Shown here piece by piece: positions 6,758 through 41,870 of a DNA stretch of 64,000 nucleotides. This DNA comes from Eledone cirrhosa. Its lineage: Eukaryota. The notes below the pieces were generated by a model. The model was not told the DNA's origin. It saw nothing but the letters and a program-made list of their open reading frames with translations, and did not search any database. Location: contig OZ024748.1 of NCBI GenBank assembly GCA_964016885.1, forward strand, positions 1,488,001 through 1,552,000, given 5' to 3'. Every line of letters begins with the position of its first letter. The first letter of the stretch is position 1. Position numbers and translations under genes: made by a program.

Positions 6758-6987
6758 CTCTCTGTAGTAATGCCTTTGTCATTATGTCTACGGTACAGCT
6801 CAGACTGGGATGTAGTGCTGTCTCTCATTGCTTGATTCTTATCTTGGTGTCACTGGACAATAAGCAATGGGTCTAATGATCGTTTCACATCACTGGACAA
6901 TGATCGTTTAACATCCATGTTCCATGCTTGCATGGGTTAGACGGGTTATCATATAATGAGACCAGTCAGGTGCGTAGACCGTGTCAT

Positions 6988-19272: not shown

Positions 19273-19851
19273 ATATATACACACACAAACACACAGCCTT
19301 TTATTATAATTGATGCAATAGAACATTGAAACAAAATACTTTATTTTTAAAAGATTGACAAGATATTAGACCTCATTCATTTATCAAGTGAGGTACAACT
19401 TGGTAGATTGGACCAAGGAAACAATGTTCCCATGGTCACAACTCCTGGCAAAATGAACATGAAATAAAGTGTCTTGCTCAAGGACATAACATCGCCCAGT
19501 CTGGGAATCAAACTCACAACTTCATATATTACTGTTGCATTGTGGCCTAGTTGTTAGAAAGTTGAATTCACAATCGTGAAGTTGTGAGTTCAATTCCCAG
19601 ACTGGGCCAACACTGTTTCCTCTCCTGCACTCTACTTCTGATTCCTTAACACACAGACACATATTTATATATACACACATATATCTATATGTGTCATATT
19701 GAAAACGTGACTGATCATTTTTATTAAAGATTTTTCTTATTTCCTTATTGTTTTTTTTTTATGATCAGATTAGTTCTAATAATCAAACTGGAGCACAGTC
19801 ATGTTTTCAATATCACATGTTTGAAAGAAAAACCTTTCTTTACTTATACAA

Positions 19852-28313: not shown

Positions 28314-28374
28314 ATGTGTTTGCTAATTGGACCACCCGGAGTTGGTAAAACTTTACTCATGAAGAGGATGCAAA
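28314..28374 (+). CDS. ARL16: ARL16 (ADP-ribosylation factor-like 16) coding exon 1
   Basis: AAC-ATG start; MCLLIGPPGVGKTLLMKRMQ contains the P-loop GxxGVGKT and matches the recalled ARL16 N-terminus (MCLLLGATGVGKTLLVKRLQ). Ends phase 1 at a U12-type donor GTATCCTTT. Confidence 0.93.
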
Positions 28375-30073
28375 GTATCCTTTGCTTTTCAGAGACTGTT
28401 TTGTTAGGATATAACTGTGTAGATATATTTCTGTTTGTTTGTGTGTTTGTCTATGTGTGTGTTTTGGTAACTGTACGTGTATATTAATCTCTGTGTGTGT
28501 GTGTGCATGTGTTTTCAAAACTACATGTATGTTAATCTGTGTGTGTGTGTCTTTCGATAACTGTACGTGTATGTTAATCTGTGCGTGTGTTGATAACTCT
28601 GTGTGTGTCTCTATTGTGATAATTATGTGTAGGTGGGTGTGCAGATAAATGTTTGTGTGTATATATGTAGATAACTTAACTGTTTTAATCTATCTTTTTA
28701 TGTGTGTGTGCATGACTATGGCTTGTTAACTACGTGTGTTTGTATATATATATATATAAATATACATATATGTGTGTGTATGTAACTTAACTGTTTTAAT
28801 CTATCTCTTTATGTGTGTGTGCAAGGCTATGAGTTGTTAACTACGTGTGTTTGTATGTATGGGGGTGATAATTACGTATGTATGTTAGTATGCGGATGAT
28901 TGTGTATGTGACAAACCGAGTCACAGAAACTGCATGTGTGTGAGGAGAGAGGGGACTTCTGGTGATCTTCCTTTTACAAGTTTATTTGTTTTGATCCAAG
29001 TGTCCATTCCATTACTGATTTTGCTTACTATAACCCGCTCAGCCCACAATATCAAGAATCACATAAACACCATTGTGTGTGTGTGCGTGTGCAGATCCCG
29101 AGTAATATAGGAGGGTAACCACAGTTAGTAGAGTCTAAGCATCATTATTTCATATAGAAATGACTTATAAAGGACTAGAACTGTTTCATTTGTATGAAAA
29201 TGTATGTGTTTCAGTGTCTGTTTATATACATGCATATATATGTGTGTGTGTGTTTATTGCACCAACACCACCACCCGGAGGAGAGAAGTCTCTGTTTCAA
29301 CAAATATTTCTTCTAAAATAGATGCATTGTCGTTGATCAATCTCTTACGAATTTCCATTCAAAGCGATCGCATTAGAAGTTGCTTGTGTGGTTATTGTGT
29401 GCCTACTTTTGTCTCCAGACAGTTATTTGTTGGTGTTGTTTAACCCCAGATATCAGCGCTGATCGAGTAAACCTACCTCCACCCCATATATATATATATA
29501 TATATATATATGTAACAGTATATAGAGAGAAAGAGCCCGGATTTTTATCCCAACGGACAGCATGAGGCGAGGAATTCCATTGGGATTACACCGTATATCT
29601 ATAAATCTATCTATAATCATTCATCTATCGACACACTCTCTCTCTACATACATACATACATACATACATACATACATACATACATACATACATACATACA
29701 TACAATATATTAACAAATGGAAACTATATTTATAAAACCATATTTATTTCATTATACATATTTCAAGGACACCAAAGCAAATTATGGTGCGCTTTCATCA
29801 GATAAAATATAATATAGATCAGTTTTATAAACAAATATTGACATACCCTTAAAGAATGCGACCATGTCGGTTGGAAGCTCCTGGATAGTGGGGTTACTAA
29901 TTTTAATATTGGTCTATTATGTAAATTAGTATCGGAAAGGTTTAAATCCCGTACATTTAAATTAAGCCGTTGGAATAGGGAAGGAAGAGCAAACCCAAAA
30001 TTTGTTGAGTACTTTATATCAGTTATAAAAATATTTGCTTCTTGTATCCCAACAAATTAAATATAACTTCTAC

Positions 30074-30105
<32 letters not shown>

Positions 30106-31486
30106 TCGAATGCATCTTTTTTCTTGGAGAGATTTGGAGATGGAAGGATGCAGCTTTGTTGAGGTTTGGCTGCTATTTCGGGCAGATCGGAGCATCGCGT
30201 AATGATTAAATACATTCACGAGAATTTTCGATGACTAATGGTCGTGATCGTTAAATAACGTTATTGTTATTGTTGCTTTTGTTTTTTTTATGCAGTTATG
30301 ACCATTCTATAAAAAAAACTTACTGCTTCTCTCTCCACTTACCCCATTACTAAATAATAAAGCGAACTAACGGAGGTGCGAGCTTCTAGTATGCGGTCGC
30401 TAGATGGATTGCTCGACCTACCTAGAAATAGCAACCAAATTTACCTCTCAAATCAAACCCGTCTATCTTTAAATAAATAAATAAGACACGAGACAACTAT
30501 GGAAGCCGCTATGTGGTCATTCGACTTGCTAGAAATATCAGTCAAATCTCTAAAAACTGTACCCGGCTATCTTTAAAAAAAAAAAGAAAGATTGGATAAG
30601 GGAGTTTAATAAAATTCACACACCCACACGCATATATATATATCATTTATATATATCATGTGGTCCAACCTGTAATTGAATGGGCTCTGCTAGATTTCGA
30701 TGGCCAAGACATGCTGTATGTCACTGTGGCAGCTCTACAACCCCATCAGATTTTGAGAGCTCAGTCAGGGTAGAGCCAAGCCAATAATAGTGGTATCACC
30801 AGGTCCCACTTAGGTATGGGACTTGGTATGACAATCAAAATGAGATGATTGGTTATGTGGTGAAATACCCAGGGATGCTTGCTGTATGAAAAACAAACAG
30901 AAAAGTGAGTGTTGACGTACTTGATGCAAAAAGACGAGAAATTTTAAAGAATTAAAATCACCCCTGTACTGATGAGAAAATAATTGTTTCTACTTTGGGC
31001 ACAAGGCCAGCAATTACTCAGTGCATTACTGGTACTTTTTCATCGACCCCGTAAGGATGAAAGGCAAAGTTAACCTCGTCGGGATTTGAACTGATGAGAA
31101 AATAATTGTTTCTACGTTAGGCACAAGGCCAGCAATTACCCAGTGTATTACTGGTACTTTATTTTATCGACCCCGTAAGGACGAAAGGCAAAGTTAACCT
31201 CGGCGGGATTTGAACTCAGAATGACAAGGGCCGTAACTCTATGCGTGAACTGATGAGAAAATAATGTTTGTCGTAATTATGAAATATGGGTAAGGGCAAA
31301 GGGAGATAACCCTTAAATTTTAATTAAGAATCAAATGTATTCTTATTTTATTGTTTTCACATGAGGCCCCTATATATATATATTTGTATGTGTGTGTGTG
31401 TATATATATAATTTTTTTGTTTTGCTTTTCTTCATGATTTAATTTTGGGTCACAAATATATGTTTATTAAATCCTTAACAAATTTG
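28375..31486 (+). other. ARL16: U12-type (minor spliceosome) intron 1 of ARL16
   Basis: 5' site GTATCCTTT matches the U12 consensus RTATCCTTT. Branch site TCCTTAAC at 31472-31479. No polypyrimidine tract before exon 2. Exact 3' end uncertain. Confidence 0.88.
30968..31265 (-). mobile_element. Two SINEs stacked at one target site in ARL16 intron 1
   Basis: ACTGATGAGAAAATAAT occurs three times (about 30968, 31090, 31248), bracketing two SINE copies. Confidence 0.8.
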
Positions 31487-31545
31487 ATTGCACAAGTAAA
31501 GGTACCTTTGAAAACCTCCATGAAATTCCAGCAACGATCCCAACA
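31487..31545 (+). CDS. ARL16: ARL16 exon 2 (5' boundary 31487 with a TG acceptor, or 31502 with the in-frame AG)
   Basis: (N)CTSKGTFENLHEIPATIPT carries the switch-I TxPT motif. Preceded by U12 branch site TCCTTAAC (31472-31479) and followed by a GTAAG donor at 31546. Confidence 0.82.
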
Positions 31546-32196
31546 GTAAGAAAATCATTTATTTGTTTTTTTCATTAAAATATTTCTTGTTATTAAATGT
31601 ACTTTGTATAAGTAACAGTAATGCACTGGGGTTGATTTAATCGATTTTCCCTGCCCCCAGAATTGTTAGCCTTATGCTTAAATCAAGAATCATTATACAG
31701 GGCTGTGGATTGGCAGTATCAGTAGAGCGTCAGACAACATGCTTTGCGGCATATAGTTACAGCCCTTTACATTCTGTCTTCCAATCCCGCCATGGTTAGC
31801 TTTGCCTTTCATCCTTTAGGTGTTGATAAAATAAAGTACCAGTGATGCATATATATATATATCATCATCATCATCATCGTTTAACGTCCATCTTCCACGC
31901 TAGCATGGGTTAGACGGTTTTGTTCCATGTGATGCAGGAGTAGTCGGGAGACTGTGTCTCGCTTGTACAGAAGTGTCTCTGGCAGGTTTTTTACAGCTGG
32001 ATACCCTTCCTAACACCAACCATATTTACAGGGTATTTTCTGAGGGTTAGTAGACTTATTGGAGCAATATTATGAATATAATAATGAAATAATAATTTTT
32101 CAACAACTCTTGCAACTTTTGGCCCACTCTGTATATAATGCACATATTCCATTTTGTTGAAAATAAAACTAATTATCATATATTTTATTCTTCCAG

Positions 32197-32316
32197 GTCG
32201 GGACAAATATGGTTAGTGTGTTACTAAGTAAGAAAATAGACATTGTTATACGAGAACTTGGAGGTTGCATGGGACCAATTTGGCACAGTTATTTCAGAGA
32301 TACAGAATATCTTATG
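32197..32316 (+). CDS. ARL16: ARL16 exon 3
   Basis: ttccAG acceptor, GTATGT donor, 120 nt. VGTNMVSVLLSKKIDIVIRELGGCMGPIWHSYFRDTEYLM contains the ARL16-characteristic RELGGCMGPIW motif. Confidence 0.95.
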
Positions 32317-33263
32317 GTATGTAAATTAATTTTTTGTGAGCTTTTGTGTAGTTTGGCCCTCAGAGGTCACCCCCACCTCATCCTTATTGGGGAATCTGTT
32401 TTTATTTGTTTGATTTTTTAAAAAATGATATTTTTAGTTTTTGTTATAACCTTTTTTATACTCAAAAACCCACAAAGCATCATTCTGTGCTGTCTAATGT
32501 TTTCTTAATGTGAACCCTGTGTGGCTAATAAAGAAATCATTATTATTATTATAAGGGCAGTGGATTGGCAGAGTCAGTGGAACGTCGGACAATAAGCTTT
32601 GTGGCATGGAGTTACGACCCTTTATGTTCTGAGTTTAAATCCCGCCAAAGTTAGCTTTGCCTTTCATCCTTACAAGGTCAAATAAATAAAGTACCAGTAA
32701 TGCACTGGTGTCAATTTAATCAACTTTCCCTCCCCTTCAAATTGCTGGCCTTGTGCCTATACTAGAAACAATTATTATTCGATATAAAACTCACAAATGC
32801 ATAACTATTATTCATAGTGGTCAGCTGAATTTCCCCTCCCCACCGAATCAGAACAATTATTGCTGTAGGATAATAAAAGGGTTAAACACTTAAAAATAAA
32901 CAGTTTTGTGTTATGGAACCAAAGAGTTCATTTTCTGGCAGTTTGGTATCAAAATGGTTCATCAATCCTGCAACTCTTATCAGTGGCTCTACTCTCTATT
33001 CTGAGAATGTGTCCAAAGAATTACCAGTTAGCATTTAAACTGGTCATATCCAGCCAGAATTTTCTCGCCTGTTTCTGTTCAAACTGGCTGTAACTAACCG
33101 CTCATACTGATGTTAAGGTGTTGTTCTCAAAACAAATAATATCAAAATCTCATAAATTCAATAATATGTGAGGTAAAGCCTTTACTGTGAAAATACAATA
33201 GTATATATAGAGTAATATAAATGGTAAAGGGTTAACACTCATGTTATTTTCTTTGTGTTCCAG

Positions 33264-33379
33264 TATATGATTGATTTAAACAACAGACAGCAAATCTCAG
33301 CAGCGTGTATACAACTGTTGACCATTTTACAAGACAAACAACTCACCAATACACCTGTCCTTCTTCTTCTTAACAAAAT
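33264..33379 (+). CDS. ARL16: ARL16 exon 4
   Basis: ttccAG acceptor, GTAAGT donor. YMIDLNNRQQISAACIQLLTILQDKQLTNTPVLLLLNK; the G4 motif NKID is completed across the next junction. Not in the ORF track. Confidence 0.93.
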
Positions 33380-33456
33380 GTAAGTTAGTTTTTAGGGTTT
33401 AAACCTTATTTTTTTAAATATCTGTCTTTGTGTTTTTACTTTCTCCAAATATTTCT

Positions 33457-33491
<35 letters not shown>

Positions 33492-33886
33492 ATATATATA
33501 TGTATGTATGCAATATATATATGTGTGTATGCAATATATATATGTGTGTATGCAATATTTATATATGCATGTATACAATGTATATATGTATGTATGCAAT
33601 ATATATATTGGTGTATATGCAATATATATATATATGCATGTATACAATGTATATATGTATGTATGCAATATATATATGTGTATATGCAATATATATATAT
33701 ATGCATGTATACAATGTATATATGTATGTATGCAATGTTCATATGTATGCATTGTATAATTGCATATATGTTCATATATATATATATGTAAGAGTGAGAG
33801 AGTCTGCAGTGCTGAGACTGAGGAGACCACTAATCATGATCCTGTTCGCAGCACCAAACGGTTTCAGCTTGTGTGTTCAGCAATAT

Positions 33887-33919
<33 letters not shown>

Positions 33920-34662
33920 GTTAAGGTGCTTGGCCTTGGCCTAGTGGTTAGGGTGTTACATAGAAATTAGTTTTTAATACATATATACATACATATGAAA
34001 ATGTGAGACTCCCAAAATTAGAAATTGACTGTAATAACAGTCAATCACTATAGATAATAGTTGAGAAAATAGGGCAAAATACCCTTAGAAATGAAAAAAG
34101 TGGACAATAGGCACCTCTGTCTATTTTTTCCCATTTTGAGAATAATTAACTATTTGTAAGCAAACAGCCTCTCTCTGTCACTGCTAGAACAAATGGATGG
34201 TAATGGTAATGGTAAACATAGTTTAATGAGGCTGTTTGCTTGCAAACGAATCAAATATTATTATTATTCAATATAAAAGGACCGTGGATTGGCAGTATCG
34301 GTAGAGAGTCAGACACCATGTTTTGCAGCATAGAGTTACGGTCCTTTACAGCCTGAGTTCAAATCCCACTGAGGTTAACTTTTCCTTTCATCCTTACGGG
34401 GTCGATAAAATAAAGTACCAGTAATGTACTGGGGTCGATTTACTCGACTTTCACCTCTCCTTCAAATTACTGGCCTTGTGCCTATACGAGAAATCATTAT
34501 TATTCAATATAAAACTAACAAAAACATAACTTATTTATAGAGGCCAACTGTTATTACAGTTATTTTTCTGTATTGGGAATCTCACATTTTCAAATTTCAA
34601 ACACTGCCAGTGTATTAATGATTCTTAAAGTTTATGTACATATTTATAATTTTTATATATAG

Positions 34663-34831
34663 AGACATGGCTACCATAATGTCGAGACCTGAATTTGAAA
34701 ATTACCTTCGCTTAGAAGAAATTCTTGAGCATTCCACTCAAAATATCACAGTCCACGAAATAAGTGCCTGGAATGGTAAAGGATTGGAAGAAATTCTACG
34801 TTGGCTTCAGGCTAATCACAAACCCAGATGA
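34663..34831 (+). CDS. ARL16: ARL16 exon 5 (terminal)
   Basis: tAG acceptor in the required phase (AT+A = Ile). DMATIMSRPEFENYLRLEEILEHSTQNITVHEISAWNGKGLEEILRWLQANHKPR* with the G5 EISA motif; TGA ends at 34831. Confidence 0.94.
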
Positions 34832-40395: not shown

Positions 40396-41870
40396 ATCAT
40401 CATCATCATCATCATCATCGTTTAACGTCCATCTTCCACGCTTGCATGGGTTTGGACAGGAGTTTTCCCACTTGAGGCAAGATTTGTTGTCCTGCTCGTA
40501 TAGGACTGTCTGGCGGGTTTTCTACGGCTGGATGCCCTTCCTAACACCAACTACGTTTACAGTGTGGACTGGGAGGTTTTTACCGTGTTACCTACACGGT
40601 CACATTACAGCGTGGACTGTGTGTTTTTTTTGTCGTGACACCTACACGACCTCATTTGTTTCGGACTGGATGTTGTGGTACCAACATAACTTCACATTTG
40701 GATGGGGTGGGGGTAGTGGGACGGGGGGGGGGGGGGGGTATTTTGGTTAAGAGGTGCCTACTGACTGTAGGTTTCGCTTTGTACTTAGGCAAGGCGGGTC
40801 TTCTGTATTACTGTGTAGCGCCAAAGATCTCGGTCCAGTGACATTGTCTTGGAGAGGTGTAAGTGTGTGAGGTCGGAATTTATCAAGTCGTCCCAGGTTT
40901 TTCTGGGTCTGCCTACTCCGTGGCTACCGTCTATTTTTATCGCCCTGCACTTTTTTATACAGCTGTCGTCTTTCATGCGCATCACGTGACCGTACCAACG
41001 TAGTCTTCTCTCGAGTAAACAACATCTGATCCCTCTTATTCCTAATTTCTCCCTTCCAGCGGAGCATGCAAGCTTCGTTTCTCTCCAGTCTGCGTATATC
41101 CTTTGCACACAATGCCCAAGTCTCACTGCCATGTAACATTGCTGTTCGTATGCAGGCATCATACAGCCTGCCTTTCATTTTTAGAGAGAACCCTTTAGCG
41201 GCCAATAGTGGTATAAGCTCTCTGAACTTTTTCCATCCCGTTCTGACTCTAGCTACTGTACTTTCAGAGCACCCTCGACCACTGCTGATTTTGTCACCCT
41301 GGTAACGGAAGGTGTCCACTATTTCTATAGTACCATCTGTGCAATGGAATGAGCTAGTATTCTGTGGGCACTTGCCGCTACTTATTGCACCAGAGCACCG
41401 GCCACATATAAAATCTATATTCTTAGTTAGCTTACCTGTGATCCCACTACATCTTTTATGCACCCATACTTTGCATTTGGGACATAAAATGGAGTTTCTG
41501 CCTACTCCTTTCCTACACACTGAGCATGGCCATATGCCAGATGGGACCAGTGCCCTATTTTCCTTCCTACAAACTAGCACGTTAAGAACGGAGCCCTGAT
41601 GAACACCAACTTTTACGGTAAACTCTTCACTATATTCGTTGTTAATTCTAACTTTGCTGACTGTTTCTTTATACATGGTTTGTATAGCTCTCACCAAGCC
41701 ATTCATCAACACCTAGTTTTCTAAGCGCCCACCAGATAATGGAGCGGGGGATTCTGTCAAAGGCTTTCTCGAAGTCAACAAAAGCTAAGTATAAGGGTTT
41801 ACTTTTAGCTAGGTACTTCTCTTGTAGTTGTCGTACAATGAAAAGAGCGTCTGTGGTACTTTTACCTGAC
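40396..41870 (-). mobile_element. Internally deleted RTE LINE with an embedded PHD finger
   Basis: RT motifs STTDALFIVRQLQEKY, AFVDFEKAFDRIP and GVHQGSVL; YADD block absent; C4HC3 finger; RTE C-terminus and (CAT)n tail. Confidence 0.9.

Follow-up and report, generated by a model that had tools for sequence, protein, structure and literature searches.

GT-TG introns of the U12 type have already been catalogued, and intron 1 of the octopod ARL16 gene is a further case of this rare type. Table 2 of Sheth 2006 (PMC1557818) gives one GT-TG U12 intron in mouse, and Table S1 of Larue and Roy 2023 (PMC10639083) counts 29, which is 0.039% of the conserved animal minor introns. In the entries of De Wolf 2021 (PMC8280824) for human GOLGA7 and TEPSIN, the TG follows the branch motif at 10 and 9 nt, respectively, with an annotated AG at 15 nt. 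For U2 introns, the TG-AG tandems of Szafranski 2007 (PMC2374985; GNAS and ARS2) are described as never having TG as their sole acceptor. ARL16 is not named in the main text of Sheth 2006 or in the supplement of Larue and Roy, which holds counts only, and it is absent from the supplement of PMC11347168. No paper on ARL16 intron 1 was found in the literature searched, with intron databases and subscription papers lying outside that search. Two Octopus species already have RefSeq models with the TG junction, so this intron may sit unremarked among the 29.

ARL16 is a small GTPase of cilia. Its gene lies on the forward strand of the window (the whole stretch of DNA that was analysed, 64,000 nt of Eledone cirrhosa contig OZ024748.1). 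When the exons are joined across the window from 28314 to 34831 with the TG junction, the product is 174 aa long, 170 of which are identical (counted by eye) to RefSeq ARL16 of Octopus bimaculoides and O. sinensis. The N-terminus of proteins P0121 and P0002 is identical to the translation of exon 1. Introns 2, 3 and 4 have GT-AG ends. The exons, the signals of intron 1 and its candidate 3' ends are as follows.

28314..28374, forward strand: ARL16 exon 1, coding part; ATG at 28314; 61 nt, that is 20 codons plus 1 nt, ending in phase 1
28375..31486, forward strand: ARL16 intron 1, read as U12-type with GT-TG ends; 3112 nt
28375..28383, forward strand: U12 5' splice site GTATCCTTT; complementary to the 5' end of host U11 and to the U6atac box
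31472..31479, forward strand: U12 branch motif TCCTTAAC; complementary to GUAAGGA of host U12 snRNA
31485..31486, forward strand: TG read as the acceptor in use, 7 nt after the motif; its G (31486) is the first one past the branch motif
31489..31490, forward strand: second TG, 11 nt after the motif; out of frame, inside exon 2
31492..31493, forward strand: AC, 14 nt after the motif; out of frame, inside exon 2
31495..31496, forward strand: proximal AG, 17 nt after the motif; out of frame, inside exon 2
31500..31501, forward strand: distal AG, 22 nt after the motif; in frame, 169 aa product
31487..31545, forward strand: ARL16 exon 2, 59 nt
32197..32316, forward strand: ARL16 exon 3, 120 nt
33264..33379, forward strand: ARL16 exon 4, 116 nt
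34663..34831, forward strand: ARL16 exon 5, coding part up to TGA

The introns of this gene also carry an interspersed high-copy repeat, probably SINE-like (30970-31260, 31600-31850, 32550-32780 and 34270-34500), and there is a very deep pile-up of contigs on the copy in intron 2.

The donor and branch site that were first described as textbook U12 signals are both present at the ends of intron 1. GTATCCTTTG at 28375 matches the 5' site consensus RTATCCTTT, and TCCTTAAC matches the branch consensus TCCTTRAC 7 nt before the end of the intron, with 31477 or 31478 as the predicted branch A. Both strands of the window together hold two copies of the donor motif and four of the branch motif, so that finding one at each end of intron 1 is non-random (about 1.6e-5 and 1.3e-3). 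Elsewhere in the window, a further U12-like donor motif at 41096 and a branch-like motif at 19643 probably occur by chance, no partner or exon context having been established for either.

The host genome encodes the corresponding minor snRNAs. A search covering U11, U12 and U6atac found U12 (128 bits, one match), two copies of U11 (96 and 94 bits) and U6atac (best match 94 bits; 15 matches above the family cut-off). The 15 U6atac matches, compared with one for U12 and two for U11, may represent many U6atac copies or pseudogenes.

A TG acceptor with AGs 10 and 15 nt downstream is also what a tandem of the major spliceosome would look like, in which a downstream AG is recognised and ligation takes place at the TG. 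Both AGs fall within the 28-nt limit of U2 TG-AG tandems, which in the account of PMC2374985 are enriched in first introns. Nevertheless, this explanation is barely credible for ARL16. The donor is a perfect U12 site and a poor U2 site; donor, branch and tract together do not fit the U2 type; and the orthologous human intron is U12. The pyrimidine fraction before the acceptor also counts against it, if less clearly, being 0.55 for intron 1 and 0.75 for introns 2 and 3, although it is 0.60 for intron 4.

Five dinucleotides between 7 and 22 nt after the branch motif are listed above as candidate 3' ends of a U12-type intron. The second TG, the AC and the proximal AG share one frame, which is closed in exon 3 by a stop codon at 32225-27. 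The initial annotation had placed the AC and the first AG out of frame after the phase-1 exon 1, with a stop in exon 3 following the AG, and had charged the distal AG with the loss of five residues; on re-reading the sequence all of this holds, the proximal AG giving a product of 46 aa and the distal AG one of 169 instead of 174 aa. Its choice of in-frame ends was incomplete. TG 31485-86 and AG 31500-01 are both in frame as proposed, but five other in-frame dinucleotides (AT 31482-83, TT 31488-89, CA 31491-92, AA 31494-95 and TA 31497-98) were missed, as was the out-of-frame TG at 31489-90. The choice among the in-frame dinucleotides is beyond the reach of sequence alone.

Contigs from sequencing runs bear on this choice. 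Contigs of four of the 24 listed runs were placed on positions 31440-32330, a range that excludes exon 1; X12, X16 and X24 are RNA-like, a status that is guessed for X12 and X16 and assumed for the unlabelled X24, and X21 is DNA. Contig 1 of X12 (341 bases) aligns to 31487-31547 (record bases 155-215) and then to 32203-32316 (record bases 220-333), and these near-contiguous record coordinates across exon 2 and exon 3 indicate that the contig is spliced. Exon 2 starts at 31487 in all three RNA-like runs, as judged from the alignment for X12 and from bin-depth arithmetic for X12, X16 and X24. In this arithmetic the depth in bin 31470-31499 divided by the contig depth was 13.0 letters, the value expected if exon 2 begins at 31487; the other candidate ends would have given 16, 9, 6, 3 or 0. 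The contigs continue upstream of exon 2 for 154 (X12), 74 (X16) and 218 letters (X24), and exon 1 needs 61. X12 and X16 come from relatives (six differences in 114 bases). X24 shows no differences from exon 3 of the window and may share its source, so it may not be independent.

The depth over exon 2 corresponds to a single contig per run with no second start in X12, X16 and X24, and in the same runs no contig starts at 31497 or 31502, although contigs drop rare forms. The start at 31487 favours TG 31485-86 over every other in-frame dinucleotide. It thereby upholds, together with the Q-N-C peptides of homologues, the earlier proposal that the productive isoform uses this TG; a junction at 31502 only, named at that time as the outcome that would speak against it, is not what the three RNA-like runs contain. 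ARL16 intron 1 is very probably a GT-TG intron of U12 type, ends and type taken together, with further support from the minor snRNAs of the host genome and from the orthologous human U12 intron.

Proteins read from other octopod data contain the same junction. Q-N-C-T-S-K-G is read by RefSeq XP_014769920.1 and XP_029647029.1 (O. bimaculoides and O. sinensis) and by Logan proteins P0002 and P0004, and Q-N-C is present in P0002, P0004 and P0121, with P0002 resting on 43 contigs. The N codon needs the last A of exon 1 and the AT that starts at 31487, so the position of the cut is fixed. Sliding of the junction was ruled out in this way, as N = A + AT fixes the register. A micro-exon was ruled out, by reasoning, from the 174 aa length, and A-to-I editing, likewise by reasoning, because it cannot convert U to A. 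P0004 represents an ARL16 isoform of a relative in which exon 2 is joined to exon 4; exon 3 is skipped in frame and the protein is 134 aa long.

The 20-residue segment created by the TG junction presumably aligns without gaps to the human ARL16 segment. Among 120 listed homologue matches, mostly fish gene models, 112 were parsed (eight were unparsed); this segment is 19 to 20 residues long in 97 of the 112, and 15 residues or shorter in none. A search for shorter homologues returned three fragments, none of which extends across an octopod junction, and clusters of other molluscs and deuterostomes showed no intron ends. Where exons 1 and 2 meet, gastropod-type ARL16 proteins (P0013, P0014, P0015, P0016, P0019 and P0039) carry additional residues (T/A-G-N-Y), which suggests that the boundary region of intron 1 differs in gastropods.

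Gene models do not all agree with these peptides. The O. bimaculoides model P0123 uses the distal AG and encodes a 169 aa protein with the five-residue deletion, and the Argonauta model P0001 reads through the donor (S-I-L) and then takes the distal AG. As this AG is canonical and in frame, it might be the true acceptor and the protein 169 aa long. This has very little probability: the three RNA-like runs start exon 2 at 31487, the distal AG lies 22 nt past the motif, and the 15-residue segment that it implies is not found in the 112 parsed homologues. The distal-AG reading is largely refuted, and the skip of P0123 and P0001 to this site is as expected of predictors that accept only AG when the true site offers no in-frame AG. 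The O. vulgaris model CAI9735382.1 (P0122) has no exon 1 and reads through the intron end as S-L-I-N-F-D-C. Altogether, three of the four octopod ARL16 models examined (P0001, P0122 and P0123) mishandle the intron 1 junction, and a TG end explains the wrong junction in these three.

The read-through in O. vulgaris is also informative about the T at 31485. If this T were an assembly error or a private allele, the intron would be a minor intron of the common GT-AG kind whose branch site lies close to its end. At 31485 the DNA run X21 is uninformative and lends the T no support. In addition, the O. vulgaris model implies one more T ahead of the G (eight bases from motif to intron end, compared with seven in the window), and a homopolymer error nearby is possible. 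However, F-D requires TTY-GAY, and AG would give L-D, so O. vulgaris has YG before exon 2 in an independent assembly. Two further octopod models avoid the site, and a genome search found the stretch at the intron end to be single-copy in the host genome. An error or private allele at 31485 is accordingly quite improbable, though less so than a U2 tandem or a distal-AG acceptor.

Removal of the GT-TG intron is likely to be the work of the minor spliceosome. From complementarity, the donor would base-pair with U11 and U6atac, and TCCTTAAC with U12. Once the branch has formed, distance and the pairing of G(+1) with G(-1) may be the main determinants of the 3' end, and if the end is set in this way, U at -2 is tolerated. 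The first G past the branch site would then be likely to be taken as the final base of the intron. The AG 17 nt past the motif falls outside the usual range. Since no G stands between the branch and 31486, we infer a first-G choice from this one locus. The GT-TG assignment combined with the mechanism in this form (minor spliceosome, first-G end) is probable, marginally less so than the assignment of ends and type by itself.

Structural data from yeast bear on the -2 position. In the P complex described in bioRxiv 10.1101/212811, the last G of the intron pairs with its first G, and the A at -2 pairs with the branch A; a figure legend of the same preprint states that U at -2 gives a stronger defect in step 2. 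A GT-TG intron retains the G(+1)-G(-1) pair and loses the pair between A(-2) and branch A. As U at -2 impairs step 2 in yeast, the TG site of ARL16 intron 1 should be weak.

Spacing is tight in ARL16. The review PMC3584512 puts the optimal distance between branch site and 3' end at 11 to 13 nt, and it describes U12 3' choice as error-prone. For human A-type introns, a count by eye of 23 A-type rows in one part (8 of 49) of a table gave gaps after the motif of 7 nt (one row), 8 (one), 9 (two), 10 (11), 11 (two), 12 (four), 14 (one) and 23 (one). The TG at 7 nt is at the short edge of this distribution, with one of the 23 rows. The second TG at 11 nt suits the spacing optimum better, yet it is out of frame. 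A survey of minor-intron spacing in the host genome (six family searches, 125 loci and a motif scan) yielded one credible minor intron. This intron belongs to a cullin gene and is of the AT-AC subtype. In-frame ACs lie 8 nt and 14 nt past its branch motif, which leaves two possible ends, and its loci are as follows.

L021, about base 1683, reverse strand: cullin AT-AC minor intron
L057, about 6875-6900, reverse strand: cullin AT-AC minor intron

Splicing to the TG, AC or AG within 31489-96 would cause a frameshift and a stop in exon 3, and the transcripts would probably be removed by NMD. Such loss of out-of-frame products would make the TG form seem more dominant than the spliceosome's own choice, and at this intron contigs cannot separate splice preference from filtering by NMD. 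In an NMD target the distance from the stop to the last junction downstream exceeds about 50 nt; it is 205 nt for the out-of-frame products, so that the precondition for a regulated switch is present. In such a switch, which the initial annotation had proposed, splicing would use both the TG and either the out-of-frame AG or the second TG, and their ratio would tune the level of ARL16 through NMD. The idea is compatible with a GT-TG intron and has precedents: the human GT-TG U12 introns of GOLGA7 and TEPSIN alternate with an AG 5 to 6 nt further on, human ARL16 splicing responds to loss of the minor spliceosome, and TSPYL2 is a precedent for GT-TG ends coupled to NMD. Against it, one contig per run covers exon 2 with no second start (rare forms being lost from contigs), and the proximal AG is part of a Ser codon, for which a regulatory explanation is unneeded. 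PMC3584512 also allows that alternative U12 3' sites may be errors. A regulated switch at ARL16 is on balance unlikely, if less so than an error at 31485.

The link between ARL16 and the minor spliceosome extends to human. ARL16 is listed in PMC13216214 among the ciliary minor-intron genes mis-spliced upon loss of ZCRB1, and a supplementary row of PMC8280824 places its minor intron at chr17:81683595-81683692 (AT-AC, 98 nt). The human and octopod introns share the gene, the phase-1 position after an R-L-Q / R-M-Q codon and the U12 type. They differ in their ends, length and spacing: the human intron is AT-AC, 98 nt long and ends 10 nt past the motif, and the one in the window is GT-TG, 3112 nt long and ends 7 nt past it. 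Given this orthology, the intron has changed its subtype without changing its place, and the two pairs of ends differ at three terminal bases. Eight fish ARL16 models read through as N-I-L, which suggests that fish ARL16 may have an AT donor.

ARL16 intron 1 reveals no new machinery. It is a natural test case for the choice of a 3' end by the minor spliceosome, since five candidate ends lie close together (TG 7 nt after the motif, TG at 11, AC at 14, AG at 17 and AG at 22), and the conserved protein is obtained from the nearest only. This layout separates a rule that takes the first G from one that takes the optimal distance or prefers AG, and it can show the extent to which NMD hides the losing sites. 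It is also one more example of a minor intron that has switched subtype, here with a three-base difference between the human AT-AC and the octopod GT-TG ends. A wider scenario is speculative and rather doubtful, though slightly less so than a regulated switch on its own: AT-AC would have changed to GT-TG in this ancient minor intron throughout octopods, the TG would have been kept with the first G beating a canonical AG 10 nt further on, and the downstream sites would act as an NMD-coupled sensor. If the sensor reading were true, the level of a ciliary GTPase would be tied to the fidelity of the minor spliceosome via the out-of-frame cluster of TG, AC and AG.

Compared with the catalogued GT-TG subtype, ARL16 intron 1 has the same U12 donor, branch motif and GT-TG ends, and, like these introns often are, it is mis-annotated by AG-only predictors. 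With the TG-AG tandems of U2 introns it has in common a TG acceptor, an AG within 28 nt and its position as first intron; those tandems belong to the major spliceosome, whereas the signals in ARL16 are U12-type and TG is the sole site seen. The closest resemblance in layout is to GOLGA7 and TEPSIN, in which a proximal TG also follows the U12 branch motif with an AG a few bases on. In GOLGA7 and TEPSIN the AG form is annotated as well, whereas in ARL16 the TG lies at 7 nt and the first AG at 17 nt is out of frame. Unlike the TG of GOLGA7 and TEPSIN, that of ARL16 yields the conserved full-length protein.
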